A stretch of DNA of 32,000 nt from an uncultured archaeon (GTDB lineage Archaea; Micrarchaeota; Micrarchaeia; Micrarchaeales; CABMGC01): contig OY969902.1 in NCBI GenBank assembly GCA_963704435.1, positions 1 through 32,000 on the forward strand. Direction: 5' to 3'. Positions 5,674 through 27,984 of the stretch are shown here, in pieces. Position 1 is the first letter of the stretch. Every line of letters begins with the position of its first letter. Under the pieces are notes generated by a model that searched no databases, had not been told where the DNA came from, and was given only the letters and a program-made list of their open reading frames with translations. Position numbers and translations under genes: made by a program.

Positions 5674-5710
5674 GTGCGCTGCCTGTTGGGTAATTGCGTC
5701 TAATTCCCAA

Positions 5711-7215: not shown

Positions 7216-7278
7216 ACTCCTCCGTAATACGCCTGCCTGATTCCTCCGGTTCACTTAACCTATTTTACCGTGGAAAAG

Positions 7279-8007: not shown

Positions 8008-8022
8008 CTTGTAAGCATGTTA

Positions 8023-8616: not shown

Positions 8617-8629
8617 TAGCTCACTTGTC

Positions 8630-9262: not shown

Positions 9263-9276
9263 GTCATTCCCTATCT

Positions 9277-9975: not shown

Positions 9976-10958
9976 GACTGCGTCACCACTCTGCTCCCCT
10001 CGGAGTCGAAGTTGAAGTGCAGCTCGGGCAGGCCCGCGCCCGCCATCGCGCGCCTTAGACTGACGTTGTCAATGGCATAGAACATCAGGAAACCACCCCC
10101 TCCCGCGCCTATTAGCTTGCCTCCGCGTGCGCCGTTCTTCAGTGCAATCCTATACCATTCGTCTACCTTGCCGTTGCTGATCTCCTTAGAGCGCTGCCTC
10201 TTGTGCTCCCAGTGGACGTTCATTAGCTCCGCGAACAGGTCGAGGTCTCCGGATTCGAGCGCGTCCCTGCTGTCGTAGCCTAGCTTCTTGGTGAAGTGCA
10301 GGTTGTCGATCATTGCCGTGTCCTTGCTCTTGCTCTTGTCGTCCTGGTCCTTCAGCACCGCGGATGCCGACCTCGAGAAGCCTGTGAAGAAGAGCAGAAG
10401 GTTATCCTCTAGGCTGTGGCGCGTGTCCTCGGAGAGCCTGAGCGGCCTGACATCCACGGTGTCGTCCCTGCGGAAAGTGAAGCAGTTTATCCCTCCGAAC
10501 GCCGAGACATATTGGTCCTGCTTTCCCACTGGCTCCTTGAGCACATCTATCTCTATGTGACACGCCTCCTTCGCAAGTTCAGCCGGAGTCACGGAGTCCC
10601 TTTTGTGGGAATGCAATGCCTTTAGCATGGCGCACGCGAAGCTCCCAGATGATCCCATACCCGTGCCTGCCGGCACGTCCGCGATGCTCACTATCTCAAG
10701 GTGCGGATTCGGTATGTTCACAAGATTGAGCGCTTCGCGCACTATCGGATGCTTGATCTCGCCTACGGAGGCAACGCGTTCCATCTGCGAGTATTTCACT
10801 ATGATCTCATCCCTGCTGAAGATCGGCTGCACCGCCACGTACACGTACTTGTCTATGGCCGCGGAGATCAGGAACCCCTCGTGCTCCCTGTAATAAGACG
10901 GAAGGTCCGTGCCTCCTCCCCCGAGGGGGACGCGGAGCGGGCTGCGTGCTATGATCAT
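9972..10958 (-). CDS. hddA: GHMP-family sugar kinase, likely D-glycero-alpha-D-manno-heptose-7-phosphate kinase
   Basis: RVPLGGGGTDLPSYY N-terminal block and the GHMP motif PAGTGMGSSGS. It is the first gene of the operon, with a TATA-like box 36 nt upstream. Confidence 0.75.
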   Translation of the reverse strand: MIIARSPLRVPLGGGGTDLPSYYREHEGFLISAAIDKYVYVAVQPIFSRDEIIVKYSQMERVASVGEIKHPIVREALNLVNIPNPHLEIVSIADVPAGTGMGSSGSFACAMLKALHSHKRDSVTPAELAKEACHIEIDVLKEPVGKQDQYVSAFGGINCFTFRRDDTVDVRPLRLSEDTRHSLEDNLLLFFTGFSRSASAVLKDQDDKSKSKDTAMIDNLHFTKKLGYDSRDALESGDLDLFAELMNVHWEHKRQRSKEISNGKVDEWYRIALKNGARGGKLIGAGGGGFLMFYAIDNVSLRRAMAGAGLPELHFNFDSEGSRVVTQS

Positions 10959-10993
10959 TATCTCATCTCTTAATTGCCGTTTGTCTTAGCTAC

Positions 10994-11001
10994 TATATAA
11001 A
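10994..11001 (-). promoter_or_regulatory. TATA-box candidate for the heptose operon
   Basis: The minus strand reads TTTATATA, about 36 nt upstream of ATG 10958, in an A/T-rich divergent intergenic region. Confidence 0.45.
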
Positions 11002-11115
11002 CATAATTCGAGAATTGGGACGTTTGTCCTATTTTCCGCTACTCACCAATCAATTTAGTCTCGTCCAAAGCCTTTTCCGAGCGCTTTTGTGTTGTACGGA
11101 TATATTTGCAATAGC

Positions 11116-11123
11116 TTTAAAAA
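11116..11123 (+). promoter_or_regulatory. TATA-box candidate for the methyltransferase at 11152
   Basis: TTTAAAAA about 29 nt upstream of ATG 11152. It lies downstream of the track's GTG start at 11089, which argues for the shorter ORF. Confidence 0.4.
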
Positions 11124-11151
11124 TGCGGGCAGAGAAATAAAAACGATTAGA

Positions 11152-11853
11152 ATGGAGCACATAAAAACAGGCAATTCGGCGTTAAATACGGTCCTAAACT
11201 ATATCCTGGATCCGGTTTTGTCACCAATAAAAACAAAAGAATATGCGCGCATAAAGCCCAATGAACGATACAGGGAAGAGTATAATTCAATTCTCACAGA
11301 AATAGCGCCATATAAGAAGCAGGCTTGGGAGGGGCTTTTTACTAGGCTGGATGCTTCACTAACAAATGCTGCCGCATATTATGTATACAGTCTGGTGAGG
11401 GGAGAGAAGCCAAAAATAGTGCTTGAGACGGGGATATTCTCCGGGTTCTCCAGTGCCATAATACTATCTGCATTGAACAAAAATAGGAAGGGTGAACTAT
11501 ACAGCACGGACGTATTCCAAGAAGTCGGGTTGGCAACACACCACGTAGATAAGGCCCGGTGGCACAAATGCATCGGGAAACCAGAATCCATATTCAAAGA
11601 AACGCTACGCGAAATAAACGGTCCGATCGACATCTTTCTCCACGACAGCCATCATGACTTCAAGTACATGTGGTATGAGTTAAGCGCCGCGCTTCCAAGA
11701 ATGAATCCCAACGGCTACATGCTGTGCGATGATGCGCATTGCAATGACGCTTTCTTGAAGTTCTGCAGAGTAAATGGATTCAAAGCAGAGATGATCTACA
11801 GTCCAGCCAAGCCCCTAGGCGTGATAAGGCTAGGCCTGAAGAAAGATGAATAG
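11152..11853 (+). CDS. Class I SAM-dependent methyltransferase (O-methyltransferase/CmcI-like)
   Basis: IVLETGIFSGFSSAIILSAL (motif I), LYSTDV (acidic loop), and DIFLHDSHH...YMLCDD. The start is set at ATG 11152 rather than GTG 11089 because of the TATA position. Confidence 0.65.
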   Translation: MEHIKTGNSALNTVLNYILDPVLSPIKTKEYARIKPNERYREEYNSILTEIAPYKKQAWEGLFTRLDASLTNAAAYYVYSLVRGEKPKIVLETGIFSGFSSAIILSALNKNRKGELYSTDVFQEVGLATHHVDKARWHKCIGKPESIFKETLREINGPIDIFLHDSHHDFKYMWYELSAALPRMNPNGYMLCDDAHCNDAFLKFCRVNGFKAEMIYSPAKPLGVIRLGLKKDE

Positions 11854-11875
11854 AGGTGTCAAGTCCTGGGCGGGC

Positions 11876-12520
11876 TTACTTTGTAGCGTAGAGATAGCCA
11901 ATCCCCTTGCCTGAGCTCTTGGTCCTAAATCCGCTGCGCTTAAGGATGGGCTCCACCTCGTTCAGCGTGTTGTGAACCTCGACCTGCATCGCGTATACGT
12001 CGGAGAGGTCAGGCCTTGCCCTAAAAATGGACAGCTCCGCGCCCTCCACGTCGCATTTTATGGCGATGCGCTTTCCTCTAAAGCCATCCAACAGCGACTG
12101 CAGGGTCACGGTCCTGATGCCAGATTCCGCAAGCACCGTCCTGTTGAACCCGGTGGCATAGGGATGCGACATTCTGGAGAATCCCTCGCTGCACGAGACC
12201 GCGACCTGCATGGTCTCTATCTTCTTTATCGGGCACTCGGAGACGTTCTTCTTCAGCAGCACATAGCTCGCAGGGTTCGGCTCGATTGCGATGACCTTCT
12301 TCACGTTCGGGTTCATGGCGAAGTAAACCGACGTGTCTCCTATCATGGCACCGATGTCTATCAGCACGGTGTCTTTCACGATCCTGTCGTAGAGCCACTT
12401 GTAAGCTTGCTTCATGAACACCTCATCGAGGTGCCCGTACAACTTCACCTTCTGCCTCATGGTAGTGATCCCATTCCACAGCGCGATTGGGTGCCGCACA
12501 AGGCCCAGGTCCTCTCTCAT
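11876..12520 (-). CDS. FkbM-family methyltransferase (second copy of the family)
   Basis: VLIDIGAMIGDTSVYF and IAIKCDVEGAELSIF blocks, collinear with the FkbM-like protein at 6490-7215. Confidence 0.75.
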   Translation of the reverse strand: MREDLGLVRHPIALWNGITTMRQKVKLYGHLDEVFMKQAYKWLYDRIVKDTVLIDIGAMIGDTSVYFAMNPNVKKVIAIEPNPASYVLLKKNVSECPIKKIETMQVAVSCSEGFSRMSHPYATGFNRTVLAESGIRTVTLQSLLDGFRGKRIAIKCDVEGAELSIFRARPDLSDVYAMQVEVHNTLNEVEPILKRSGFRTKSSGKGIGYLYATK

Positions 12521-12638
12521 GAAATCCTCGGATAAATCTTGGGCAGCCAGCTATTAAATATGGATGCCATGCCTCTCGGCAGTCTGCGACCGCAAACAAT
12601 AATTAGATGAACCACCAAATGGAATCAAGGTCAGTGCG

Positions 12639-13772
12639 ATGGACATACATTTTCTTGTGCGCAGCAATGTTCGGATGATAGGTTCAAGCGGCACCGAGGA
12701 CCAGACCTACTACTACGCTAAATTCTTGAAAGATCGTGGGAAGAATGTCGATATGCTAATGGCATATTCCTTTGGCACCTTCACAAAACTGAAGCCAGAC
12801 CACAATACCTACGACAGGTATGCCTCTCTGAAGGAGAGAAGGATAGGGTTCATCAAGATAAGGACCCCCATACCCCTGTTCTCGCTGGTCTATCTCCGCG
12901 GCCTGCCCGATGGCATAACTTATGTGCCCTATTCGTTCTATGACTACCTGCTCAACCTGGTCTTCAAGCGCAAGGCCCAGATCATCGTGTTCGGCGGGCA
13001 CTGCCTGGAGGTCCGCACGAAATATCCTGTAATGCGTGGAATCATAAACCTCGCAGTGCGACTTATCTTCAGGCTCAGAAGCAACGAGATCTACTTCCAT
13101 ACGATAAACCTCGCGCAGAAGAGATATCTCATGAGGCTCGGGCTTCCAGAGAAGAATATTTTCTATGTGCCTAATTTCATAGACTACAGGGATGTGCCAC
13201 TTCTTGACAGCCGTTCAAAGAAGCTCAGAGTCCTGCACATTGGAGGGGTGAGCAAGACATCGGAGTTCCTACCTCAGATTTTTGACAGGCTTATTGAGAA
13301 GGGGGAGTTCGCTAGGTTCGAATTCTGCCTTGTTGGATCTAAGCAGCCTCTTGAAGTGATAGAATATGCAAAGAAGCACAAGAACGTAAAGGTAATGGGC
13401 TATGTAAGCGAGCGAAAGAAGTACTCGCTCCTTAGGAGCGCCGACGCGCTGATAATAGCGTCACAGGAGACCTTCTCGATAGTGGCGCTAGAGGCCCTGG
13501 AGTGCGGTCCGATAGTCATATCGCGGCCCAATCCTGCAGTGGAGATCATGAAAGATCTAGGCGCGCGCCTATTCCTGCTCTCCGACGATGAGCCCGATAG
13601 CTACGTTGGCGCGCTCCATGAGGTGATGCGCCTGAAGGAAAACCCCCGGCACATGGCATCGCTCAAGTCTGTGAACAAGCACGTGTGCGAGAAGTATTTC
13701 TCCAGCGGAAACGTCCTGCCGCAGATTGCAAAGCTGTTCGACACTGTGGAAAAGAGGGCTTCTGGGCGCTAA
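12639..13772 (+). CDS. Glycosyltransferase, GT4-like, paralog of 1169-2326
   Basis: E-x7-E motif ETFSIVALE followed by ALECGPIVIS. It is collinear over its full length with the 1169-2326 product, with roughly half the residues identical by eye. One example is LPDGITYVPYSFYDYL against LPDGIIYFPYSFYDYL. Confidence 0.8.
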   Translation: MDIHFLVRSNVRMIGSSGTEDQTYYYAKFLKDRGKNVDMLMAYSFGTFTKLKPDHNTYDRYASLKERRIGFIKIRTPIPLFSLVYLRGLPDGITYVPYSFYDYLLNLVFKRKAQIIVFGGHCLEVRTKYPVMRGIINLAVRLIFRLRSNEIYFHTINLAQKRYLMRLGLPEKNIFYVPNFIDYRDVPLLDSRSKKLRVLHIGGVSKTSEFLPQIFDRLIEKGEFARFEFCLVGSKQPLEVIEYAKKHKNVKVMGYVSERKKYSLLRSADALIIASQETFSIVALEALECGPIVISRPNPAVEIMKDLGARLFLLSDDEPDSYVGALHEVMRLKENPRHMASLKSVNKHVCEKYFSSGNVLPQIAKLFDTVEKRASGR

Positions 13773-13848
13773 TGCGAGCTCGCTGCGCGGGCGTTCTGCC
13801 CACCACACAAGATAAATACGCGCTGGCGAATATTAATGGCGTGATGCT

Positions 13849-14922
13849 TTGGATTCAAGGTTCATAGGGCTGGGACTGGCTGCTCTCGAGAACAACTTCG
13901 TGAGCCTCAGCCACCCGTACAAGCTCACCTTCGCGGTGACCTACAGGTGCCAGTCGAAATGCAGCACCTGCAACATATGGCAGAAGAAGCCAGAAGGCGA
14001 GCTCTCCCTAGATGAGATACGCAAGTTCGCACAGAAGAACCCCCACTTCAGGTGGATAAGCATAACTGGCGGCGAGCCCTTCCTGAGAAGCGACATAGTG
14101 GAGATAGTCGAAGCGTTCATGAAGAGTTCCAAGGGCCTCTACATAGTGACGATACCTACCAATTCGCTGTCGAGCCTGGATCTGCTTCTGAAGAGGGTAG
14201 GGGGCATCCTCGACCTAGGAATGCCGAACCTGACGATAACGGTAAGCCTCGACGGGTACCGCGAGCTCCATGACAGGATAAGGGGAGTGCCCGGCGCGTA
14301 CGACAAGGCGATCGCTCTCGCGCGGGCGCTACACGAGATGCAGAAGGGGCGCGGCAACCTCCTATGGGCTTTCGGCTACACGATAAGCAGGCACAACGTC
14401 GGGATGCTCGAGAGGACCTACGAGGAGGTCCGCAGGGAGCTTCCGGGCCTAAGGTACGATGACTTCCACGTCAACGTCGCTCAGACGTCCGAGGTCTACT
14501 ACAACAACGTCAACCTCGAGCTTAAGGCCGAGAAGGGCGAAATCGCCAAGGAGCTTAGGTCGTTCATTAGGAAGAGGAAGGGAGGGACCGATGCGGTATC
14601 GCTCCTTGAGGGCGTCTTCCTGAAGAAGCTCGTCCAGTACGTGGAGACGGGCAAGGTGCCCATCCGGAGCAGGAGCCTCGACGCGTCGCTTTTCCTCGAC
14701 AGCCAGGGCAACGTCTTTCCCTCGATAATGTGGAACAGGAGGATAGGGAACCTAAGAGAGACGGGATACGACCTGAAACCGCTCCTGAAGAGCGCGGAAG
14801 CCAGGACCGTGAGGGAACTCATAGGCAGGGGCGAGGAGCCGAGCGCGTGGACTGCCTGCGAGGCGTACCAGTCGATAGCCGGCAACCTGCCGAGCTTCGC
14901 GAGCCTGCTTCTCCCGCCCTAG
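13849..14922 (+). CDS. Radical SAM enzyme
   Basis: CQSKCSTCNIW (the CxxxCxxC [4Fe-4S] motif) followed by ITGGEPFL. Only one further Cys is present, so no SPASM-type auxiliary cluster is evident. The start is a TTG at 13849; the alternative is GTG 13900. Confidence 0.8.
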   Translation: MDSRFIGLGLAALENNFVSLSHPYKLTFAVTYRCQSKCSTCNIWQKKPEGELSLDEIRKFAQKNPHFRWISITGGEPFLRSDIVEIVEAFMKSSKGLYIVTIPTNSLSSLDLLLKRVGGILDLGMPNLTITVSLDGYRELHDRIRGVPGAYDKAIALARALHEMQKGRGNLLWAFGYTISRHNVGMLERTYEEVRRELPGLRYDDFHVNVAQTSEVYYNNVNLELKAEKGEIAKELRSFIRKRKGGTDAVSLLEGVFLKKLVQYVETGKVPIRSRSLDASLFLDSQGNVFPSIMWNRRIGNLRETGYDLKPLLKSAEARTVRELIGRGEEPSAWTACEAYQSIAGNLPSFASLLLPP

Positions 14923-14977
14923 CGATATCACGTCCTTTATATTACTAATATACTAGTTCTAACGGAACGGCTTTACC

Positions 14978-15685
14978 ATGGAGACGTATGGCGATATAAC
15001 TGTCATCATCCCGACGATCAATGAGGAGGGTACGATAGGTCTGCTCGTCAGGCGCCTCCTCTCCATGTACCCCCAGATCAAAGTGATCGTGGTGGACGAC
15101 GGGTCCACCGATGGAACGAAGCAGAAGATAGCCACCCTCGCCTCGAAAAGCCGCGGAGTGAGCCTCTACGACAGGAAGGCGCTCGAGCTCCCTAAGGGCC
15201 TCGCTTACAGCATGATGGACGGCGTGAGGATTGCAAGGACGAAGTACGTGGTGTTCATGGACGGCGACCTCCAGCACCCGCCGAAGGTCGTGGGGTCCAT
15301 CGTGCGCAGGCTGCGCGACGGATATCCCATCTCGATAGCGGTAAGGGCCAAGACCTACAATCCGGTGCTCTATCGCGCCATAATATCGAGCGTCCTCTCG
15401 GTGATCGGCCGGTCCGTGCTCTGGGCCGAGGGCAAGGCCTCGAGCAGGGACATCTTCTCGGGTTACTTCGGCGTCGACGCCGCATATGCGAGGGGGGTTA
15501 TGAAGCGCGACCGGAAGAGGTTCGTCGGGGAGGGCTACAAGTTCCTGTTCGACCTCCTAAAGTGCGTTCCAAAGGGAGATGCGCGCATCGCGGAGGTGCC
15601 GTACCTGTTCGTGGTCAGGCGGTTCGGCTCGTCGAAGGCAGACGTAAAAGCCGTAATCGAGCTGATGAAGTCGTACCTTTCCTGA
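14978..15685 (+). CDS. GT2 glycosyltransferase, dolichyl-phosphate hexose synthase (Dpm1)-like
   Basis: ITVIIPTINEEGTI, VVDDGSTDGT, and FMDGDLQHPP (DxD plus the QHPP block typical of polyprenyl-phosphate glycosyltransferases). A TATA-like CTTTATATT lies about 35 nt upstream. Confidence 0.85.
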   Translation: METYGDITVIIPTINEEGTIGLLVRRLLSMYPQIKVIVVDDGSTDGTKQKIATLASKSRGVSLYDRKALELPKGLAYSMMDGVRIARTKYVVFMDGDLQHPPKVVGSIVRRLRDGYPISIAVRAKTYNPVLYRAIISSVLSVIGRSVLWAEGKASSRDIFSGYFGVDAAYARGVMKRDRKRFVGEGYKFLFDLLKCVPKGDARIAEVPYLFVVRRFGSSKADVKAVIELMKSYLS

Positions 15686-15928: not shown

Positions 15929-15936
15929 TTTAAATA
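15929..15936 (+). promoter_or_regulatory. TATA-box candidate for the S-layer-like gene
   Basis: TTTAAATA, ending 43 nt upstream of ATG 15979. It resembles the box upstream of the next gene (TATTTAAA at 19217). Confidence 0.5.
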
Positions 15937-15978
15937 CCTTGCACTTGCTACTAATTCCAAACTATTGAAAGTGGTAGA

Positions 15979-18900
15979 ATGAATAGACTAAATGCAAAGA
16001 GAATAGGAGTGTTGGCTGCCAGCTTGCTTTTCGGTATGGCGGTCGCGGGACCTGTGTCCTTCAGCAATATACCTATAATAAACAGCGCAGGCCAGCCAGT
16101 GGTCCAGATAGTCGTCGGATCGCAGGCGCAGGCTAGTGACGGTGTAGTCGTCGCGAACATCGCTGCAGTCATTGGAAACCTGGCGTACACGTCAACTCCA
16201 ATAACCGCAACGGTAAGCGGAACGAGCAACGTGAAGTGCGCAGTTACCACGCCTTCGTGCACCCTGACGAACCAGCAGGTCTCCCTGGGTGAGAGCGGAG
16301 TTGTCGCACCAACCGGAACCTATGGGTTCACTGCTCTGATAGGCTCAATACTCAACGGCGCAACCATACTTAGCGCACCTGTCAGCACCAAGTCGCTGCA
16401 GTCCTTTTCCAGCAACGGATACGGATTCCCGCAGACCACTGCGATACAGACCAGCCCGTACCCAAGCCCTTACAGCACAGGAAACTACGTACCTAACCCT
16501 TCAGGAGGCGTATCAACCTCTAACGGCGGAGGCGTTCAGTTCTCCACGTTCACGTCGGGCACCGTAGATAACATCCTGCAGATCCAGCACGCGCAGCTAC
16601 CTGCGCTTCTGAGCAACTACGGGACTTATGGAGAGAGCGAGTCGCTGTGGATCACCGGATTCCCGGTCTTCGACCAGCAGAACACGGTCAACAACTTCGC
16701 CATCTTCGACATGGGCGGAGCGTACCAGGCGACGTTCAACAAGCCGGTACCCCTTTCTACGAGCAACTCTGCCGCTAACGCGCAGATAAAACTGCTTGGC
16801 CAGAACTGGGTAATAGTAGGAGGCACATACCCTTCAGGAACGTCCTACACCACGACGGGCACAGTCGCAGGCGGAACCCTGCTGCTGGCGCAGTCATTGG
16901 TCAACAAGACCACCGTGTACGTAGGCCACAACCTGACGAGCGGACCTTGGGTAGTGCAACTGACCGACTTGGGACAGACCGTCAACAACGCCAACCCTGC
17001 TTCGCTCAGCATCTACTACAAGGGAGTGCTGACGAACACCACGTCGATAGCGCCTAGCTCGAACAAGACGTTCAACGTCACGGGCAACAGGCTCATCGTC
17101 TATGTCGGATCGACCTTCGCAGGACTGTACGCATACCAGAAGTGGGCGCAATTGCAGCTCTACTCGAACATCTTCCCTCTGTCGAACGGGCAGAAGTACA
17201 ACGCCTCGGTCAACCAGGGATGGACGACAAGGCTGCTTTGGACAAACGCGACTTCATCGGGAGCGGCAAACGCGCTGCAGAGCATAATCTTCTTCAACAA
17301 CTCGATGTCCAACCCGGTACTCCCAGGAGGAAGCCTAAACTACATGACTTCGCCTGCGGCGTACAAGGTGACGTTCGTCGGGGACACGTTGGGGAGCGCA
17401 AGCTACGACCCTGTGACCTTTGCGGTGTCAAGCCAGGGCAACCAGAACTACAAGAACAATGCTGGTACCCAAGCGGCATCGAGCGACGCGACATCCTCCG
17501 TATACAGCGTAGTCAACGTAAACTCCATGTGGGGTACGGGCAATGCATTGCCTGCGACGATTCTCCAGGAGAACGTCACGTCCATAAACGAGCCGGCACA
17601 GATGCTGACCGTGACAAGTTCAATCCCGAACGCGTTCACAGTCGGTGCGGTGCAGTCAGGCACGATATCCTACGACCTTTCGCCGTACCAGCTCACAGAG
17701 GCTAACGTGGTCAACACGCTGGCTAGCGGGGCGAACATTCTTGGAACAGCGATATTAGTCACGGGAGGAGCCAGCAACCTGATATCAACGAGCGGCCAAC
17801 TGACCATAACCGTCAGCGGCTACAAGTCGGTCTCTGGGCAGTCAACGCCTACACAGGTTACCACCGTGGCACAGGTAACCAACTCCAAGTCAGGAGTCCC
17901 TACAGTGACGATGTCGAGCAACTCGATCATGGACTACGTGACCAACATAGGCCTGAGCCAGGCCATACCGGGATTGCAAGTGGTCGTGACAGAGATGGCA
18001 TCGGGCAACCCATCCAACACTGTGACCCTGGCGACTCTTGCGCCGATCACAACGCCATACGCGCTGTACACGCAGAGCTCGCAGACATACATGTCCACGG
18101 CAGTCGGAACGAGCATCCTGTACAACCAGCAGAACGGCCAGAGCTCAAACAGCTTCTCGCTCGTGCAAACGGGAACTGGCGCAGGCACAGGCTGGGGCAA
18201 CGCGAACACAATCAGCGGAGTATCGAGCAGGTACTTCACCATGAACGTGCCTGAGTACAACGTACCGTCGCAGGTGTCGTCGGTAGACCAGATAGCCATA
18301 GGCATCTGGAACAACACCATTGCGGGAGGATCGCAACTGTTCCAGCTGAACATGTCGCCGGTGGGCAACCGCAACAACGTGACTTACTACACAGGCACGG
18401 GCGGAGCGGGTACCGTAACGGGCGTGTACGCACCAACGGGCTTCAGGACTGAGCGCGGAAGCAAGGTCGCGAGCATAACTCCGACCTCCGTGACGCTGAA
18501 CCTCGCCACCAACGTGGACGGGCTGCAGTTCATAGTCGGGCCTGCGAACGTCACGGCTGCGACGACCACGAAGAAGATCGTAGGGCCTTATGGCGTCGGG
18601 CAGACCACGAACATAGCGAACGTCACAATAGCGAACGTGACGGCGACATGCGCGTTCTCGACGACGAGCTGCAGCGTAACTGGACTGGCGAACGTAACCG
18701 CAACGTCTAGCGCATCAAGCGCACTGACGCCGGTTGCTCTGAACACTGCCTCAACGCCGATCGCGGTGCTGGACTCGAACTCCAACGCAGCGTCGACCCT
18801 GGTAGTGGTTGGCAGCAAGTACGTCAACTCCGTGGCTGCGCAGATCTTCTCGCAGAACCCGAGCCTGTCGAACACGTTCGGCCCAAGCTCGGTGGTTGTG

Positions 18901-19017
18901 CAGGCTTTCGGGACCAACCGCATACTGGTCGCAGGCTACTACGCGAACCAGACAGTGCAGGCCGGAAACCAGTTCATCCAGGCCCTGCTGGCCTCTGCGG
19001 CTAACGGCGGCCACTGA
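15979..19017 (+). CDS. S-layer-like surface glycoprotein (secreted, no membrane anchor)
   Basis: 1012 aa with the signal peptide MNRLNAKRIGVLAASLLFGMAVAG. It is Thr/Ser/Asn/Gly/Val-rich, and only about 5% of residues are charged by my count. I count 17 N-x-S/T sequons. The N-terminal QIVVGSQAQASDGVVVANIAAVIG and C-terminal LVVVGSKYVNSVAAQI blocks resemble archaeal S-layer N- and C-terminal domain motifs by eye. The gene is monocistronic, with its own TATA box and a strong hairpin plus T-run terminator. Confidence 0.65.
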   Translation: MNRLNAKRIGVLAASLLFGMAVAGPVSFSNIPIINSAGQPVVQIVVGSQAQASDGVVVANIAAVIGNLAYTSTPITATVSGTSNVKCAVTTPSCTLTNQQVSLGESGVVAPTGTYGFTALIGSILNGATILSAPVSTKSLQSFSSNGYGFPQTTAIQTSPYPSPYSTGNYVPNPSGGVSTSNGGGVQFSTFTSGTVDNILQIQHAQLPALLSNYGTYGESESLWITGFPVFDQQNTVNNFAIFDMGGAYQATFNKPVPLSTSNSAANAQIKLLGQNWVIVGGTYPSGTSYTTTGTVAGGTLLLAQSLVNKTTVYVGHNLTSGPWVVQLTDLGQTVNNANPASLSIYYKGVLTNTTSIAPSSNKTFNVTGNRLIVYVGSTFAGLYAYQKWAQLQLYSNIFPLSNGQKYNASVNQGWTTRLLWTNATSSGAANALQSIIFFNNSMSNPVLPGGSLNYMTSPAAYKVTFVGDTLGSASYDPVTFAVSSQGNQNYKNNAGTQAASSDATSSVYSVVNVNSMWGTGNALPATILQENVTSINEPAQMLTVTSSIPNAFTVGAVQSGTISYDLSPYQLTEANVVNTLASGANILGTAILVTGGASNLISTSGQLTITVSGYKSVSGQSTPTQVTTVAQVTNSKSGVPTVTMSSNSIMDYVTNIGLSQAIPGLQVVVTEMASGNPSNTVTLATLAPITTPYALYTQSSQTYMSTAVGTSILYNQQNGQSSNSFSLVQTGTGAGTGWGNANTISGVSSRYFTMNVPEYNVPSQVSSVDQIAIGIWNNTIAGGSQLFQLNMSPVGNRNNVTYYTGTGGAGTVTGVYAPTGFRTERGSKVASITPTSVTLNLATNVDGLQFIVGPANVTAATTTKKIVGPYGVGQTTNIANVTIANVTATCAFSTTSCSVTGLANVTATSSASSALTPVALNTASTPIAVLDSNSNAASTLVVVGSKYVNSVAAQIFSQNPSLSNTFGPSSVVVQAFGTNRILVAGYYANQTVQAGNQFIQALLASAANGGH

Positions 19018-19037
19018 AGGTCACGGCTGACAGTCTT

Positions 19038-19081
19038 AGGGAGGAGGCTTTTGCCTCCTTCCTTTCTCTTTTTTTGTTTTT
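19038..19081 (+). terminator. Hairpin plus oligo-T transcription terminator of the S-layer-like gene
   Basis: An 11-bp stem (19038-19048 AGGGAGGAGGC pairing with 19053-19063 GCCTCCTTCCT, one G-U pair) with a TTTT loop. T-runs follow at 19069-19075 (T7) and 19077-19081 (T5). Confidence 0.7.
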
Positions 19082-19216
19082 AAGGTCCCCCAGCGCAAGC
19101 GGGCCGCAGTTCCGTTTAAGGGTGTCCGGAATCTCATAGAAAAGCGCAGTATTTCCCATCCAGAGCGGCCTCCGCAACCCCTAAAGCACCCTGACTTCCC
19201 TCGGATTCCACTAACC

Positions 19217-19224
19217 TATTTAAA
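19217..19224 (+). promoter_or_regulatory. TATA-box candidate for the 19262-21911 operon
   Basis: TATTTAAA, about 38 nt upstream of ATG 19262. Confidence 0.45.
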
Positions 19225-19261
19225 GTTTCACATCGAATACGTCTCACAACCAGTTGATAAG

Positions 19262-21313
19262 ATGGGCTCGAGGTTGACGTTCGCATTGCTGTTCGCAGTC
19301 GCAATCATTCCAGGGATGCTAGGCGCATACTCGATGAAGGGCGTGGACTCGCTCCTCTCGGGCTACAGCGTGCCCAACTCGCTCGTCAGCTCGCTGTCCC
19401 CAGTTAACCTCACCCTCGCGGGAAGCTCCTACGTCGCGCTGTACAAGGGCGGCGCGCTCTACTTCCTCGTCAACGTGACCCGCGGCAACTACTCGCTCGT
19501 GACGAACGCAAGCAGCATATACTCCGTAATCCGGAACCGCACGATAAGCGCCGCGCTCGCGCAGGCGAACCCATCCGCGCTCTCCGCGCAGATGAAGCGG
19601 TATCAGGCCTCATCGGCGCAGCCGCTGGGCGACTGCCTCTTCGAGACCGGCCTGTCCCAGGGCGCCACGTGCACGATGCAGAACAACTGCGCCTCGTGCC
19701 AGTCGATACCCGTCTGCTTCGCCGCGATGTTCAACAACTCGGAGATCCTGGAGCCGGCGATACAGACATTCGCGAGCCAGTACGCCTGGATGAACCAGAG
19801 CTTCAATGAGTTCTATTCCGCGGCGAACTCCCTCAGCGCCGGCAACGCCAACGCGAAGATCCCGATAATGAATGCGGCATTCCTCAACATCACCAACCTG
19901 ACCGAGAACATATACCAGAACGCCCTCTTCTCCCCTCCGTCGAACTTCACGTCAACCTCGTTCTCGAGCTGCAACTACGCCGCCAACCCCTCCACGCTGC
20001 CGTGGTACTGCGTGGCGATCGGCTTCTGCATGAACCCCACCTACAACTACACCAAGCTAGCGTACATAAACAGCGGCCTTAGCGCGCTCGGAGCCCTGCC
20101 GATATCAAACAACCAGGTTCTCGCCATAGCGACCAACACCAGCAGCACGGAGAACGGATACGTCGCCACCATCATCGCCGGGCAGAAGCGCGCGCAGCTG
20201 TCAGCGATGCTCAACAGCACCATACCGGGGTACGCCGCGCTGGTCAGCAGCTCGGCCTCGGTGCTGGCCCGCATCCCCAACCAGGCGCTGCTCAACGCGC
20301 TTACCGCGTTCGAGGCGACCTACGCAGGCGCCACGGCCAACTATTCCACCGCCAATATCACCGCCGAGGGCGTGACGCTGGCCAGCGAGTATGCGGCCCT
20401 GAAGGGCGCGTACGCCGCGGTAAACGGCACCTACTCGTCGCTCATTTCGAACTCGTCCAGCAACACGGCGAAGCTGATCGAACTGCAGCTCGGGGGCTCC
20501 TCATCGCAGGAGATAGGAAACCTCGCGTTCGAGCAGTTCAGCCTCAACAGCGCGATAGCTTCCGGCGGATCGGCCAACATCCTTGCGCTAAACGCCGAGG
20601 AGGCATCGATATCGCGCAGCCTGTCCTCGTACTACGTCAGCCCGGTGGACCTAGTGGGGATCGCAAGGTACTTCGACGGCCCGTTCGTAACGCTCATCGC
20701 ACCGGCACTGGGCCTCGGCTACTCTAGCGCGGTGTCGCTAGCGCCGGCCCTTGGCGCGCTGCTGTCGCTGATAATCGGCGCGGTCGTGTTCGCCCTGCTG
20801 TTCGTGTACAGGTCGCGCCTCCACTCGCACCACAAGGTCGCGCTCAACCGCAAGACCAGGAGGAACTGGAACATCGTCTTCGCGCTGCTGGCAGCGCTCA
20901 TCCTGGTCTACGCCGGGCTCACGGCCCTGCTGGTGTCCTACGCCAACGCGTCCGCGCCTATCGGCGCGTTCAACGGCGCGCTGAAGTCGTCGGGATCGCT
21001 GGTCGTGGTCCTCAACGGCACCGCTACGCAGGCAATGCAGTCGTGCGCAGGCAAGATAGAGGCGCAGGCGCAGCTCGAGGGTAAGAAGATCATCCAGGCA
21101 ACGTTCTCTGACGGAATCTGCAGCGCCGACAATATCACGGCCTCGGAAGGCACGTGCATGGGCACGTACGCGGACCGCGGGACTCCCATGGTGATACTCA
21201 CCAGCGCAACGAGCCCCGGAATCGGCGTCTACTCGCTGTACGGCACCGAGCTCATGGCAAGCGGAAGCGATGCGGTAATGGGCACGTGCTACGTTTCTTC
21301 TCTCATAGGGTGA
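19262..21313 (+). CDS. Membrane-anchored surface glycoprotein of unknown family; candidate S-layer anchor/stalk
   Basis: 683 aa with the signal peptide RLTFALLFAVAIIPGMLGA. About 480 aa of ectodomain includes a Cys-rich patch (GDCLFE...TCTMQNNCASCQSIPVC) and an Ala-rich, helical-looking region. Two TM helices (LAPALGALLSLIIGAVVFALLFVY and IVFALLAALILVYAGLTALLVSY) flank the basic loop RSRLHSHHKVALNRKTRRN. A 123-aa four-Cys C-terminal ectodomain follows. I count 20 N-x-S/T sequons. Confidence 0.7.
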   Translation: MGSRLTFALLFAVAIIPGMLGAYSMKGVDSLLSGYSVPNSLVSSLSPVNLTLAGSSYVALYKGGALYFLVNVTRGNYSLVTNASSIYSVIRNRTISAALAQANPSALSAQMKRYQASSAQPLGDCLFETGLSQGATCTMQNNCASCQSIPVCFAAMFNNSEILEPAIQTFASQYAWMNQSFNEFYSAANSLSAGNANAKIPIMNAAFLNITNLTENIYQNALFSPPSNFTSTSFSSCNYAANPSTLPWYCVAIGFCMNPTYNYTKLAYINSGLSALGALPISNNQVLAIATNTSSTENGYVATIIAGQKRAQLSAMLNSTIPGYAALVSSSASVLARIPNQALLNALTAFEATYAGATANYSTANITAEGVTLASEYAALKGAYAAVNGTYSSLISNSSSNTAKLIELQLGGSSSQEIGNLAFEQFSLNSAIASGGSANILALNAEEASISRSLSSYYVSPVDLVGIARYFDGPFVTLIAPALGLGYSSAVSLAPALGALLSLIIGAVVFALLFVYRSRLHSHHKVALNRKTRRNWNIVFALLAALILVYAGLTALLVSYANASAPIGAFNGALKSSGSLVVVLNGTATQAMQSCAGKIEAQAQLEGKKIIQATFSDGICSADNITASEGTCMGTYADRGTPMVILTSATSPGIGVYSLYGTELMASGSDAVMGTCYVSSLIG

Positions 21314-21317
21314 TCCG

Positions 21318-21911
21318 ATGGCGGACAAGAAAGGCAAGAAGCAGGCTGCGGCGGACAGGAAGCCGACCGCAAGGGCAGTAGCCCGAGAGCGGAAGGAGGC
21401 CAAGCCCGCGCAGGTGGCCGCCACATCACGGATGAGGCTCCTGTTCACCGTCGCGCTAGCGATCGTCGCAGTCATCGCCGTGTTCGCGGTGTTCCTCTTC
21501 GCGCTCCGCGGGACTGCCATCAATGTTCCTTTCTCTACGTTCAAGGCGAACTTCGATGCGGCGCCAAGGGTCGCGGTGTTCGTCACGTACCTCAACCAGA
21601 CGCAGTACACCTTGGAGTTCCACTGCTCCAGCTACCTTGTCCAGTCGATAGCCTCGTCCAGGAACGTGAGCATAGACTTCTACGTGATGAACGGCACGAG
21701 CTGCACCTTCTCACCTACAGGGGTTGGCCACACGATCAACGGCACCGAGACGAAGGCCGCGAGCTACTGCACGGCCCTCGAGGGCAACGAGCCGAGCATA
21801 CTCCTTAACTACGCGCCGCTGAACCTCACGCTCATCAGGGCGTACGAGCTCACGGTCTACGGGAACGCGGCTTACATGGCGAGCTGCCCGATTGCCGTCG
21901 ACATACACTAG
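21318..21911 (+). CDS. Single-pass (N-in) membrane glycoprotein with a four-Cys ectodomain paralogous to the C-terminus of the upstream protein
   Basis: 197 aa with the Lys/Arg-rich tail MADKKGKKQAAADRKPTARAVARERKEAKP and the TM helix LLFTVALAIVAVIAVFAVFLFAL. The ectodomain has 5 sequons and 4 Cys. The start lies 4 nt after the upstream stop, so the two genes form an operon. Confidence 0.65.
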   Translation: MADKKGKKQAAADRKPTARAVARERKEAKPAQVAATSRMRLLFTVALAIVAVIAVFAVFLFALRGTAINVPFSTFKANFDAAPRVAVFVTYLNQTQYTLEFHCSSYLVQSIASSRNVSIDFYVMNGTSCTFSPTGVGHTINGTETKAASYCTALEGNEPSILLNYAPLNLTLIRAYELTVYGNAAYMASCPIAVDIH

Positions 21912-21983: not shown

Positions 21984-22169
21984 ATGTCTATGGCAATTAG
22001 GGAAGCTGAGAAGATGCACACAGCGGTAGGAAGAGGCGTTATGCTAAAGGTACGCGCAGCCGAAGGCCTAAAAGCATATAAAGAATTCATGAAGTTCCTA
22101 ACAAACGAGGATTTGAAAAATATAGATAGGAGCGTAAAGGAGTTTCACACTAAGTTTAGATTTGGCTGA
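21984..22169 (+). CDS. Small hypothetical protein (61 aa), uncertain
   Basis: An ORF with low GC relative to its neighbours and a TATA-like CTTTAATATC about 20 nt upstream. There is no recognisable motif. Its 3' end overlaps the convergent hjc-like ORF by 14 nt. Confidence 0.3.
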   Translation: MSMAIREAEKMHTAVGRGVMLKVRAAEGLKAYKEFMKFLTNEDLKNIDRSVKEFHTKFRFG

Positions 22170-22662
22170 CTGAATGGCTGCTCAGAGCTTCTTCTACGCT
22201 CAACATTCTTCTTCCTCCTTTTATTTCCTTATCGATTCTGTCAAGCTTTTTGCTAACCAAGGCTTCTTCGCTTGGGAACACATCCTCAAGCTTCCTGTTC
22301 GACTGGAGCACCTTCCTCCTCGTTATGTTCCAGTTGTCAGTGCCTCCCTTCTCGAACTCGGACAGCTCTATGAAGTACCAGCCCTCGCCCTTCATGCGCC
22401 AGGCCACGAACGTGGGGAACGCGCCGTTGTCCCTCCAGAACAGCAGCTTCCTGTACTGGTCCCCGTCCAGCGCCAGGCTGGTGCTGTCCCAGGCCTTGCA
22501 CTCCAGGGACACGCACTTCCCGCCCTTTATCGCTATCAGGTCCGGGCTTATCGCGTTCACTCCCGAGCCCGCGCTCCTGGTCACGGACCAGCCCTTGCCG
22601 TCGAGTATGTTGAGCAGCTCCCGCTCGCTCCTGGCCCCCTTCTCGTACCTCCTGATCGCCAT
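22156..22662 (-). CDS. hjc: Holliday junction resolvase Hjc, with a C-terminal extension
   Basis: From ATG 22662 the protein reads MAIRRYEKGARSERELLNILDGKGWSVTRSAGSG...PDLIAIKGGKCVSLECK. This carries the Hjc nuclease signature (E, D, E-x-K) in the canonical order. The track ORF start at 22815 adds 51 non-homologous residues and lies upstream of the TATA box. Confidence 0.8.
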   Translation of the reverse strand: MAIRRYEKGARSERELLNILDGKGWSVTRSAGSGVNAISPDLIAIKGGKCVSLECKAWDSTSLALDGDQYRKLLFWRDNGAFPTFVAWRMKGEGWYFIELSEFEKGGTDNWNITRRKVLQSNRKLEDVFPSEEALVSKKLDRIDKEIKGGRRMLSVEEALSSHSVSQI

Positions 22663-22680
22663 GGATGTGGCTTGCGGTTC

Positions 22681-22691
22681 AAAATATATAA
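22681..22691 (-). promoter_or_regulatory. TATA-box candidate for hjc
   Basis: The minus strand reads TTATATATTTT, centred about 24 nt upstream of ATG 22662. This implies a leaderless or near-leaderless mRNA. Confidence 0.5.
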
Positions 22692-22946
22692 GCGTTTTGT
22701 GCCCTCCGAGCGCGTTTGGCAGCGCTGGCCGGCTCCCCGTAGGCAACGTATTTAACCCTTTCCTACCCATTAGTTCCGTAGCTAACGGCTCAGGTGCTGG
22801 GATATGCCGCTTCATATTTCATTCGGTTTCTATAGAAAACTGTCTCTAACCGACGGTATCGTGTGAACTCCTCCTAGCCGCAGCTTCGCAGTGATGGATT
22901 GCAGCCTGAACAGAGAGATGCAGCAAGGGCGAGGCAGGTCTCGGGC

Positions 22947-23289: not shown

Positions 23290-24795
23290 ATGGCAAAAAC
23301 GTATTTGGACATTGTGAAGTACATGGTGGTGGCGAAGTTCACCATCGACGGCCTGGTGGACAAGCCCGACATAATCGGAGCGGTCTTCGGGCAGACGGAA
23401 GGCCTGCTCGGCGACGACCTCGACCTGAGGGAGCTGCAGAAGGGTGGCAAGATCGGCAGGATAGAGATAGAGGTCTCGCCTTCGGGGAGCAAGACCTACG
23501 GCAGGCTGCTGCTGCCGGCGTCGCTGGACCGCGTCGAGACCTGCATACTCGGCGCAGCCGTCGAATCAGTCGACCGCGTAGGCCCGTTCGAAGCCAAGTT
23601 CTTGGTCGAGAAGGTCGAGGACACGAGGGCCGCGAAGCGCATGAAGATACTCGAGAGGGCGAAGGGCCTGATGAAGCAGCTGCTGAGCACCGAGATACCT
23701 GACAGCAAGGAGCTGGCGGAGATGGTCCAGCGGGAGGTCAAGTCTAGCGAGATAACGACATACGGTCCGGAGAAGCTCCCTGCGGGGCCGGACGTCGGGA
23801 AGGCCGACGACGTGATAATAGTCGAGGGCAGGGCCGATGTCATAACGCTGCTGAAGAACGACATAACCAACGCGATAGCAGTGGGAGGGGCCACGTCGAA
23901 CATACCCCCGAGCATAATCAAGCTCGCGACCGAGAAGGAATCGACGATATTCGTCGACGGGGACAGGGGCGGGGACCTGGTCATAAGGTCGCTGCTCAAT
24001 GCGGTCGAGTTCGACTTCGCCACCAAGGCGCCTGACGGGAAGGAGGTCGAGGAGCTAACCCGTAAGGAGATAATAAAGGCGCTGCGCTCCCGGGTGCCCG
24101 TGGACCAGCTCGGCAAGAGCAGGGAACGCGACGCGAACAGCCACAGGGACCACAGGGATCGCAGGGACGAAAGGGATGGCAGGGACAACAGGGATTCAAG
24201 GCACGGCCCGTACGGGGGAGCGCGGCAGCCGCTGCCTCCGCCGCCAGTGAGGCCGCCGATGCCTCCGTCCCAGGAGGGGCCGGATCAGTTCCCGCAGCAG
24301 CCGCAGTTCGGTCCGGAGGGCAGGCAGGGCCAGAGCGACTCCGACTTCATGGATTCCGGAGAGGCTCCGCATCTCAAGGACATCAGGAGCGACACCGACG
24401 AGGAGGAGGCCTCCGACGAGGGCGCGCTGCAGAGGATTGAGCCGTCGCGCATGGGCAGGCCGGAAGGCGAGCCCATGCCCAGGCCCGCGCTGGAGAGCGT
24501 GCTGCTGGGCCAGCTGGCCAACGGCCTCACGGACCTTTCCGGGACGCTGAGGAGCAGGCTCTACTCGTCTGACGGAAGCGTGGTAAAGGAAGTCCCGATA
24601 AGGGAGCTCCTCTCCGTGCTGCAGGACGCGAGGTCGACCTATGCGGTGGTGCTGGACGGGGTGATAACCCAGAGGCTGGTCGAGCTGTCGCTCGAGAAGG
24701 GCGTGAAGGCCATATACGGAGTCAGGGCGAACCCGATGCCAAGGAGGCATCCCGAGCTGATACTCTACACGAAGGAGCAGGGCAGGATAGAATGA
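23290..24795 (+). CDS. dnaG: Archaeal DnaG primase (Toprim), with a long low-complexity insert
   Basis: The N-terminus KYMVVAKFTIDGLVDKPDIIGAVFGQTEGLLGDDLDLRELQKGGKIGRIEIEV is the hallmark archaeal DnaG block. The Toprim domain is IIVEGRADVITL ... IFVDGDRGGDLV. A conserved C-terminal region (YAVVLDGVITQRLVELS) follows an R/D- and Pro-rich insert of about 125 aa. Confidence 0.9.
   Translation: MAKTYLDIVKYMVVAKFTIDGLVDKPDIIGAVFGQTEGLLGDDLDLRELQKGGKIGRIEIEVSPSGSKTYGRLLLPASLDRVETCILGAAVESVDRVGPFEAKFLVEKVEDTRAAKRMKILERAKGLMKQLLSTEIPDSKELAEMVQREVKSSEITTYGPEKLPAGPDVGKADDVIIVEGRADVITLLKNDITNAIAVGGATSNIPPSIIKLATEKESTIFVDGDRGGDLVIRSLLNAVEFDFATKAPDGKEVEELTRKEIIKALRSRVPVDQLGKSRERDANSHRDHRDRRDERDGRDNRDSRHGPYGGARQPLPPPPVRPPMPPSQEGPDQFPQQPQFGPEGRQGQSDSDFMDSGEAPHLKDIRSDTDEEEASDEGALQRIEPSRMGRPEGEPMPRPALESVLLGQLANGLTDLSGTLRSRLYSSDGSVVKEVPIRELLSVLQDARSTYAVVLDGVITQRLVELSLEKGVKAIYGVRANPMPRRHPELILYTKEQGRIE
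24142..24204 (+). repeat. Seven tandem 9-bp units (NNN-AGG-GAY) inside dnaG
   Basis: CACAGGGAC CACAGGGAT CGCAGGGAC GAAAGGGAT GGCAGGGAC AACAGGGAT TCAAGGCAC. The units are in frame and encode HRD HRD RRD ERD GRD NRD SRH. Confidence 0.85.
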
Positions 24796-26652: not shown

Positions 26653-27915
26653 CTATACTACCTTATCCTGCAATAGAAATTTCCAGGCGGGGATCAATCT
26701 GACTTTTCCCCCATTAAGGCTGACTGATCTCTCGTCATTTTTAGTTATCATCAGGCCTCTATCAATGCCAAATTTTTCCATGAATTCTCTCAAGTATTTA
26801 AAGTCTCCAGGATTTATGGCCTCCCTGTATTTCACTTCTATGGGTACTCCGTCCCGGACGATGTCGATTTCTCCGCCATTCTTCCAGAAAGCCACGGCTT
26901 TTAATTTGTTAACGACGGCAGTCTCGACCATGCTCCCAAAAAATGCCTCATCGGCATTCAGCTTGTAAAGGTAGATTAGCGCATTGTCCGTAGGATAAGC
27001 TCTCTTTTTCTTTCTCAGGGTGGCCATACTGCCCTTTCTGAAGTTTCCCATGACGCGGATCAGGAAGCTTTCTCCAAGATAAACGAGATAATCTTTTATC
27101 ACCCGCCTGTCCTTGCCGAACTGCTTGCTCAGCGACTGGTAATCCACGTACATTCCCGGATTCGCGGATATCAGTTCGAGGAGCACCCTCAGGAATTCGG
27201 GGTCCTCTATTTTGAAGATTTTAGGTATGTCCTGGTACACGATTTTGTCCACGACAAGTGCCTTGATGTACTCTCTGAATTCCCTATTGCTTTCGAACAG
27301 GAAAGTTTCTGGAAAGCCTCCCTTCTCTACAAATTTAAGGAAGAGAGGCTTGATTTTCGTTTCGTACTTGAATTCACTCTCTTCGACGCCGCTGAACCTA
27401 AGATATTCTACGAAGTCGAACGTGTTCAAAACGAATTCGGAAATCCTTCCTGCCAGCGTCTCCTTCGTTTTTTTCCTTATAAAAAGGGATTCCGATCCGC
27501 TTATTATGAATTTGGCCTTTGGATACAGGTCGTAATATTTCTTTATCTCGTTCTCCCAATTGCCGCACTTCTGGATTTCGTCGAAGAAGATGTAGACCCT
27601 TTCTTCCCTGAAATCTTTTTTGTGGAACTCCCTGTACCCGTCAATGATTTCGCTTACCTTTGACTCGGTCTCATCGAAAGAGAAGAATAATATGTTCGTG
27701 GCGTCCGTTTTTCCCTCTATGAGGCTCTGGATCAGCTGGTATATTATCGTGGTCTTCCCAACCCTTCTCAGACCAGTAAGCGCCAGTATGAACTTGCTTT
27801 TGAGGCTCCTTTCCATTTCAAAATACGCGTTTCTCTTGAAGGGCAGTGCCAGTTCGGGGTCGACCTTTCCCCTCATCCACCAGTGGTTGAATTCTTCAAG
27901 TTTCGCTTTATCCAT
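26653..27915 (-). CDS. AAA+ ATPase of the AAA_14/DUF4143 class (COG1373-like)
   Basis: 420 aa. N-terminal FNHWW block, Walker A LTGLRRVGKTT, Walker B YIFFDEIQ, and a C-terminal region typical of the DUF4143-containing archaeal ATPases. GC is far lower than in the flanks. Confidence 0.85.
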   Translation of the reverse strand: MDKAKLEEFNHWWMRGKVDPELALPFKRNAYFEMERSLKSKFILALTGLRRVGKTTIIYQLIQSLIEGKTDATNILFFSFDETESKVSEIIDGYREFHKKDFREERVYIFFDEIQKCGNWENEIKKYYDLYPKAKFIISGSESLFIRKKTKETLAGRISEFVLNTFDFVEYLRFSGVEESEFKYETKIKPLFLKFVEKGGFPETFLFESNREFREYIKALVVDKIVYQDIPKIFKIEDPEFLRVLLELISANPGMYVDYQSLSKQFGKDRRVIKDYLVYLGESFLIRVMGNFRKGSMATLRKKKRAYPTDNALIYLYKLNADEAFFGSMVETAVVNKLKAVAFWKNGGEIDIVRDGVPIEVKYREAINPGDFKYLREFMEKFGIDRGLMITKNDERSVSLNGGKVRLIPAWKFLLQDKVV

Positions 27916-27942
27916 CGATATCTATGTACATTACAATGCGCT

Positions 27943-27952
27943 TATTTATTAA
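27943..27952 (-). promoter_or_regulatory. TATA-box candidate for the ATPase gene
   Basis: The minus strand reads TTAATAAATA, 28-37 nt upstream of ATG 27915. It is flanked by two copies of the palindrome ATGTACAT. Confidence 0.4.
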
Positions 27953-27984
27953 CTTTATGGTCATTCTGATGTACATGTTCTGGA

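Follow-up and report, generated by a model that had tools for sequence, protein, structure and literature searches.

Two membrane glycoprotein families linked to the anchorless S-layer gene of Micrarchaeota, and their possible role at the cell surface

The window considered here is a stretch of 32,000 nucleotides from the metagenome-assembled genome of an uncultured archaeon of the Micrarchaeota, a phylum of very small symbionts (positions 1 to 32,000 of contig OY969902.1, assembly GCA_963704435.1), and its subject is a surface-layer (S-layer) gene followed by two genes for membrane-anchored glycoproteins. In the cultured relative Ca. Micrarchaeum harzensis A_DKE, SLP_Mh (Micr_00292) is a glycosylated S-layer protein that holds rank one in the proteome and rank three in the transcriptome and makes up a lattice visible by freeze-etching (Gfrerer et al., bioRxiv 10.1101/2021.04.28.441871). 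The mode by which it is attached could not be stated by these authors (Gfrerer et al., bioRxiv 10.1101/2021.04.28.441871), and the same gap is flagged by Krause et al.; a second, membrane-bound stalk protein has previously been suggested for the S-layer of this phylum (Gfrerer et al., bioRxiv 10.1101/2021.04.28.441871; Krause et al.). No later paper resolving S-layer anchoring in Micrarchaeota was found in the literature searched, nor was any discussion of the gene pair described below. A first-pass annotation, made from the letters of the window alone, had proposed that the three genes form a module of lattice and anchor.

The S-layer gene and its transcription signals

Three open reading frames (ORFs) on the + strand, at 15979-19017, 19262-21313 and 21318-21911, encode proteins of 1012, 683 and 197 amino acids (aa), just as they were first described; the second and third proteins are referred to here as P683 and P197. 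The first ORF (15979..19017) encodes the S-layer protein. It matches the Pfam family S_layer_C (PF05124; E 9.5e-18, 64.9 bits against a cut-off of 23.9) in one stretch spanning residues 37-1002 as well as the NCBIfam model TIGR01564 (E 4.3e-9, 35.5 bits against a cut-off of 25), and the S-layer-like motifs that had been picked out by eye are thus borne out by profile searches. A full-length comparison with its counterpart from the Ca. M. harzensis lineage gives 42% identity, and the window protein shares with SLP_Mh both these family matches and the same neighbour genes. A lattice-forming role as the major envelope protein has been demonstrated in the Ca. M. harzensis orthologue and, at 42% identity, is probably shared by the window protein. 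The 1012-aa protein is an anchorless S-layer protein of the Methanococcales/Thermococcales/Micrarchaeota family (TIGR01564, PF05123/PF05124), whose cut-offs it passes; like the Methanococcus voltae member, it has no transmembrane (TM) anchor. The S-layer interpretation of the first-pass annotation therefore stands, although it had overlooked that a protein of this type is already described for the phylum.

A hydropathy scan gives a sole hydrophobic segment in this protein, N-terminal at residues 8-34, and the N-terminus itself (MxxLNAKRI...) is conserved in 37 orthologues. A Sec-type signal peptide of about residues 1-23 (15979..16047, + strand) is predicted on this basis, with its cleavage site placed by reference to a Methanococcus voltae crystal construct that starts at residue 24. 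In keeping with what was first claimed, hydropathy and inspection of the sequence yielded no TM segment, no C-terminal hydrophobic tail and no lipobox Cys. Directly anchored archaeal S-layer proteins use a C-terminal TM helix or a lipid modification (bioRxiv 10.1101/2024.05.28.596244). The window protein has glycosylation and a Sec signal peptide in common with such proteins but neither a C-terminal hydrophobic segment nor a lipobox Cys, and a different attachment mechanism is therefore needed. Its 17 N-glycosylation sequons (N-X-S/T) were counted correctly in the first-pass annotation, but they are not enriched over the Asn/Ser/Thr-rich composition of the protein (21 +/- 4 in shuffled sequences).

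The only relative of the 1012-aa protein in PDB is 9FSA (phmmer E 3.6e-4), an engineered M. voltae S-layer construct of residues 24-75 and 484-576 that forms a dimerising domain, located by the authors of the structure in the ‘anchoring region’ (SymProFold, PMC11410804). The two halves of this structure align to opposite ends of the window protein, 9FSA residues 16-49 to residues 37-70 (16087..16188, + strand) and 9FSA residues 55-151 to residues 912-1005 (18712..18993, + strand), and this is why the Pfam match extends over residues 37-1002 as a single stretch. By this alignment, a composite domain assembled from the N- and C-terminal segments, as in 9FSA, appears to be present in the 1012-aa protein, with about 840 residues between its halves as compared with about 400 in M. 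voltae. Across the phylum this N+C-terminal domain is the most conserved part of the S-layer protein (p-distance 0.35 vs 0.54). Between close relatives, the lattice protein is what diverges fastest: in the near-identical strains represented by loci L006 and L007, DnaG is 100% identical, P683 99.6% and P197 98.9%, while the S-layer protein is only 91.5% identical. The window protein also carries two CX6C motifs, KCAVTTPSC (C87/C94; 16237-16260) and TCAFSTTSC (C891/C898; 18649-18672), which are arranged symmetrically, one just inward of each half of the composite domain. Neither occurs in the protein of the Ca. M. harzensis lineage, as if they had been gained or lost together.

The signals around these genes divide them into two transcription units. 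A TATA-like box, TTTAAATA (15929..15936, + strand), lies about 45 nt 5' of the ATG of the S-layer gene, and another, ATTTAAA (19218..19224, + strand), lies 38 nt 5' of the ATG of P683; both were read from the sequence and would act as promoters. Of 46 related intergenic regions that follow an S-layer gene, 29 contain TATA-like motifs. After the S-layer gene comes a transcription terminator (19038..19081, + strand), in which an 11-bp GC-rich hairpin (stem 19038-19063) is followed by a T-rich tract reaching 19081. The fold has an energy of -21.7 kcal/mol (z = -4.7), and 0 of 200 shuffled sequences fold as well. Where the intergenic region following the S-layer gene is short (46 loci), T-runs just past the stop codon are kept in 44 loci and a strong hairpin in 32. 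The gap from the P683 stop to the P197 start is 4 nt, which is also the commonest spacing across loci. A Shine-Dalgarno-like motif, GGGTGATCC, precedes P197 in the window and, with the strict pattern satisfied in just 19 of 62 loci, is only suggestive. P683 and P197 are a tightly coupled operon and a transcription unit separate from the S-layer gene, and the TATA boxes, terminator and separate units of the first-pass annotation have all held up. A 290-aa ORF antisense to P683 and P197 (20738-21610, - strand), like the other long antisense ORFs, is a frame artefact of GC-rich coding sequence.

P683 and P197

P683 (19262..21313, + strand) is a membrane glycoprotein whose description draws on its ORF, its homologues and an AlphaFold2 model. 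A signal peptide of residues 1-24 (19262..19333), evident from hydropathy and probably cleaved at its end, terminates in a conserved A-Y-S, in which Y23 is invariant and A22 and S24 nearly so in an alignment of 16 sequences. It is followed by a large ectodomain (residues 25-486; 19334..20719), modelled as a small beta-sheet and then long helices, by a TM hairpin (20720..20950) that hydropathy resolves into TM1 (487-521), a basic loop and TM2 (535-563), and by a C-terminal alpha/beta ectodomain (residues 564-683; 20951..21310) with four invariant Cys. The model has a predicted local distance difference test (pLDDT) score of 90.8 and a predicted template modelling (pTM) score of 0.61, and features helices across 83-482, the two TM helices and the C-terminal alpha/beta domain. 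Both the order of parts read in the first-pass annotation and its helical-looking region are reproduced by these data. The protein has 12 Cys and 20 sequons (9.4 +/- 2.7 in shuffles), and the family means for the large ectodomain are 20.4 sequons (9.1 in shuffles) and about 8 Cys. Within the ectodomain, conservation is highest in an eight-Cys block spanning residues 125-256, and the Cys are invariant in 70 sequences. The TM-hairpin region has, as a family mean, 8.3 Lys plus Arg against 1.1 Asp plus Glu, and zero sequons.

P197 (21318..21911, + strand) is, from its ORF and hydropathy, a single-pass membrane glycoprotein with its N-terminus predicted inside. As had been claimed, there is one TM segment, at about residues 40-65 (21435..21512; hydropathy peak 3.19, model helix 34-65), and it follows a K/R-rich tail, probably cytoplasmic, of residues 1-39 (21318..21434; pLDDT <50). 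The ectodomain, residues 66-197 (21513..21908), contains four invariant Cys and a VPFSTFK motif in alignments and is modelled at pLDDT ~80-90, the model having been built from a 17-sequence alignment. The protein has 4 Cys and 5 sequons (1.4 +/- 1.1 in shuffles). Family means are 5.9 sequons in the ectodomain (2.6 in shuffles) and 8.9 Lys plus Arg against 3.8 Asp plus Glu in the N-terminal tail.

The C-terminal domain of P683 is a paralogue of the P197 ectodomain, a relationship that the first-pass annotation had overlooked. Comparison with hhalign gives a probability of 96.6-97.5% (E 5e-10 to 5.5e-12) with the four invariant Cys aligned, and the order of secondary-structure elements in the two models is identical. 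Across both families, sequons are enriched (about 2.2-fold) only in the parts predicted to be outside. By this enrichment, the basic character of the hairpin loop and the P197 tail, and the invariance of the Cys, the pair faces outward, and these features support the placement of the large helical domain of P683 and of both small domains outside the cell.

P683 and P197 belong to two unannotated families, found only in Micrarchaeota. Sixteen close homologues of P683 were identified, and a profile search of 1.84 billion proteins returned 235 representatives (50% clustering), of which the full-length ones are ~630-780 aa and the others are fragments. Among species-representative genomes P683 occurs at 73 loci, labelled Micrarchaeota, Micrarchaeia or uncultured archaeon, save two labelled ‘Marsarchaeota’. 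Members of the P197 family are ~180-230 aa long, and those named in a 62-sequence profile search come only from metagenome-assembled genomes (MAGs) of Micrarchaeia or Micrarchaeota, some of them labelled ‘Marsarchaeota’. Neither search, with P683 against 1.84 billion representatives or with the 62-sequence P197 profile, detected a homologue outside Micrarchaeota. Neither protein matches any Pfam or NCBIfam family, nor PDB by sequence profile, and Foldseek comparison of both models with PDB, and of P683 also with BFVD, gave nothing significant. The non-significant, generic matches (BcsB/LacI-type alpha/beta subdomains, tape-measure helices, BabA, VtrA/VtrC) were set aside. In agreement with the first-pass annotation, which could place neither protein in a known family and had seen no resemblance to SlaA or SlaB, these searches returned only family members or non-significant matches; no family or S-layer-chain match that would indicate SlaB homology was found in Pfam, NCBIfam, PDB sequences or Foldseek, libraries in which the presence of SlaB was unchecked. 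Two functions that the first-pass annotation had named as refuting its proposal were also considered. P197 was rejected as a type IV pilin or archaellin, as it has a K/R-rich tail of about 39 aa before its TM segment and no significant Pfam or NCBIfam match, and the proteins were rejected as transporter subunits, having only two and one TM segments and no family match.

Gene linkage across Micrarchaeota and the neighborhood of the locus

The association of the three genes extends well beyond the window. P197 lies directly 3' of P683 in 68 of 69 loci, and where at least 3.5 kb of upstream sequence is available, the S-layer gene is found upstream of P683 on the same strand in 40 of 43. Seeding on the S-layer protein instead, the pair is near in 16 of 18 loci (15 downstream, 1 upstream), these being close homologues in metagenome contigs with enough flanking sequence. 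The co-occurrence test proposed in the first-pass annotation is therefore passed in both directions. S-layer genes at just 30-33% identity are still accompanied by divergent copies of the pair, while a very distant S-layer-like gene (L143) has no pair nearby.

Gene order is conservative in Micrarchaeota, as can be seen from Hjc and DnaG, two genes of unrelated function that likewise keep synteny with the pair (42 of 61 loci for Hjc, 33 of 53 for DnaG). In the most divergent third of loci, the order of Hjc and DnaG is lost altogether (0/14) while the S-layer gene is still adjacent in 10 of 10. The trio also stays together through rearrangements: L040, L097 and L098 have the order P683-P197-SLP, and in L111 the pair is flanked on either side by S-layer genes. 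About a third of loci have further genes intervening between the S-layer gene and the pair. These observations establish that the association of the S-layer gene with the pair is deeper than background synteny. One further locus (L088) has two tandem S-layer genes. Multiple triads in single MAGs (L049/L050/L067, L007/L014, L024/L027) were considered as duplications of the module and rejected, since Hjc and DnaG are duplicated in them too, which indicates strain mixtures in the bins.

Directly upstream of the S-layer gene in the window is a glycan-biosynthesis island of about 15 kb (1097-15685). It encodes two GT1 glycosyltransferases, a UDP-glucose/GDP-mannose dehydrogenase, an epimerase, an SDR and a TAL_FSA protein, together with a heptose-nucleotide-like set (HAD, SIS_2, NTP_transferase, GHMP kinase), several methyltransferases, a radical SAM protein and a GT2. 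Ca. M. harzensis, in contrast to the window genome with this large sugar-nucleotide and glycosyltransferase island beside its S-layer gene, is described as unable to synthesize carbohydrates, and the window Micrarchaeon may therefore make its own S-layer glycan precursors. A DDE_Tnp_1 transposase of an insertion sequence element lies at the edge of the island (115-1011), and markedly lower GC contents of 0.42-0.46 are seen in 1-kb bins including 1001-2000, 11001-12000 and 27001-28000. On the other side of the module, a 61-aa ORF is called between P197 and Hjc in the public record. The Hjc Holliday-junction resolvase (22156-22815, - strand) is 219 aa from its first ATG and 168 aa in the public record. 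In the DnaG primase homologue (23290-24795), conserved parts flank an insert of low complexity that is about 130 aa long (roughly residues 275-400) and has a high content of Arg, Asp, Pro and Gln. Elsewhere in the phylum, some genomes encode other large secreted or repeat proteins, bearing InlB B-repeat, Kelch-like and Ig-like domains, among the genes of the module (L039 1005-4031, L002 6778-7926, L003 1976-4558), which suggests that the module region is a hotspot for surface-protein genes. In the Ca. M. harzensis lineage a 5094-aa protein without a window counterpart is encoded immediately upstream of the S-layer gene (L145, 1-2520).

Possible roles of the pair

The reading preferred here, with a probability of roughly 0.4, is that P683 and P197 form a sparse, sub-stoichiometric tether or pillar that engages the S-layer protein through its N+C-terminal domain. 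P683 and P197 would form a heteromeric, N-glycosylated and disulfide-stabilized complex in the cytoplasmic membrane, in which the paralogous alpha/beta domains, at the C-terminus of P683 and in the ectodomain of P197, would pair just above the membrane on a base of three TM helices. The helical ectodomain of P683, about 460 residues long, would extend towards the S-layer and touch the composite N+C-terminal domain, or its glycans; it would be a sparse tether or pillar rather than a stalk present once per subunit. That the two proteins heterodimerise, contact the S-layer protein and act as a tether is inferred from several lines of evidence: the S-layer protein is anchorless and its terminal segments match the domain that 9FSA places at the ‘anchoring region’; the linkage holds from both seeds and through rearrangements; and the pair faces outward, with paralogous ectodomains and coupled genes for which no competing family assignment was found.

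The counterparts of the pair in Ca. M. harzensis can be named. Membership of the P683 family has been verified for Micr_00293 (28% identity, E 1e-63). At the locus of the Ca. M. harzensis lineage whose P683-type protein is identical to Micr_00293, the 174-aa protein encoded just downstream is a P197 homologue (33% identity, E 1e-20) and corresponds to Micr_00294.

Several observations weigh against the tether. In the co-culture transcriptome, Micr_00293 and Micr_00294 reach 1.95 and 1.19 transcripts per million (TPM) where the S-layer gene reaches 124.8, that is, about 64- and 105-fold less, and with ordinary genes in the same table at about 0.3-1.5 TPM, expression of the pair is roughly ordinary. 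Conservation of the terminator shows that unequal expression of the S-layer gene and the pair has been selected for. Neither Micr_00293 nor Micr_00294 is in the published Ca. M. harzensis proteome, which is weak evidence, as only about 40 Micrarchaeon proteins were detected. The linkage has exceptions on both sides: two pairs have housekeeping genes upstream (L020, L023), one is preceded by a different large surface or repeat protein (L039), and two S-layer loci have no pair nearby (L081, L095). S-layer proteins of the Methanococcales/Thermococcales type also occur in lineages for which no P683 or P197 homologue was detected, and this class of S-layer therefore does not universally need the pair. 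Finally, a mirror-tree and partial-correlation analysis of S-layer, P683, P197 and DnaG distances had no discriminating pattern, all pairs being correlated (r 0.4-0.9, partial r ~0.3-0.6), and it was not used.

The first-pass annotation had likened the locus to the SlaA/SlaB system of Sulfolobales, and the likeness stands to the extent that an anchorless glycosylated lattice protein is encoded beside a membrane-anchored glycoprotein with an elongated ectodomain; homology to SlaB and parity of expression do not. SlaB is usually co-transcribed with the lattice gene, whereas here a conserved terminator separates the transcription units. The Micrarchaeota locus has two membrane proteins in place of one, and P683 has a TM hairpin with an extra ectodomain where SlaB has a single C-terminal TM segment. 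The ectodomain of P683 is helical in the model, while SlaB consists of beta-sandwich domains. The mRNA of the pair, moreover, lies far below that of the lattice gene in Ca. M. harzensis, while in a Sulfolobales host the homologues of SlaA and SlaB both rank in the top five for expression. Fold (helical), membrane topology (a TM hairpin), absence of homology, the conserved terminator and the expression ratio all argue against a stoichiometric stalk of the SlaB kind. The fuller proposal, that the pair is the missing S-layer anchor, a heterodimeric pedestal of three TM helices bearing two paralogous ectodomains and a helical, Cys-rich stalk, unrelated to SlaB and docking the N+C-terminal domain, is regarded as doubtful. 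As the link between the Micrarchaeota S-layer and the membrane, P683 and P197 are at present the strongest candidates, with expression data speaking against a one-to-one anchor; a sub-stoichiometric tether or assembly complex is plausible.

The alternative that fares best is that P683 and P197 constitute an envelope complex of their own in these obligate symbionts, for example a receptor, an adhesin or an apparatus for host contact, whose linkage to the S-layer gene would reflect only the clustering of surface genes. Such a role would suit a family found only in a host-dependent phylum and expressed at a housekeeping level in Ca. M. harzensis, other surface genes do lie nearby (the 5094-aa protein in L145, the InlB-repeat protein in L039, the Ig- or Kelch-like protein in L003, and that in L002), and the helical ectodomain has a weak, non-significant Foldseek resemblance to the Helicobacter adhesin BabA. 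However, the adjacency of the S-layer gene is far more constant than that of any other surface gene and survives a moved or flipped order, and the ectodomain of P683 must cross or sit under the S-layer in order to reach a host. On balance, this alternative is rather unlikely.

Less likely again is that the pair is a factor in S-layer biogenesis or patterning, a low-copy membrane platform that would receive the secreted, glycosylated S-layer protein and nucleate it or insert it into the lattice. The two-way linkage fits such a factor equally, the low mRNA level and the conserved terminator fit it better than they fit a stoichiometric anchor, and the locus adjoins the glycan-biosynthesis island; yet no catalytic or chaperone-like domain was detected in either protein with Pfam, NCBIfam or Foldseek, the large, heavily glycosylated and disulfide-rich ectodomain looks structural, and a precedent was not identified in the literature searched. 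That the trio are neighbors merely through inherited gene order, with a function of the pair unrelated to the S-layer, would be in line with the shared synteny of Hjc and DnaG but is improbable, as the most divergent clade loses that order while retaining the S-layer gene, and as order variants and insertions still keep the trio together.

The attachment of the Micrarchaeota S-layer is an acknowledged gap, as it is for anchorless S-layer proteins of the Methanococcales type generally. Two phylum-wide and previously unannotated genes are now nominated to fill it and, as Micr_00293 and Micr_00294, are present in the cultured Ca. M. harzensis, where the question is testable in the existing co-culture and where an antibody against the S-layer protein exists. 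If the pedestal proposal is true, the pair would be the first membrane partner identified for the S-layer class shared with Methanococcales and Thermococcales, and the first sub-stoichiometric archaeal anchoring system to be described. If the pair is an anchor, the principle of a lattice with a separate membrane anchor would be one already known from Sulfolobales, while the parts, the stoichiometry and the architecture would be new. Should the pair prove to be otherwise, P683 and P197 would still represent a conserved and diverse envelope complex that is specific to a DPANN phylum whose surface mediates symbiosis.

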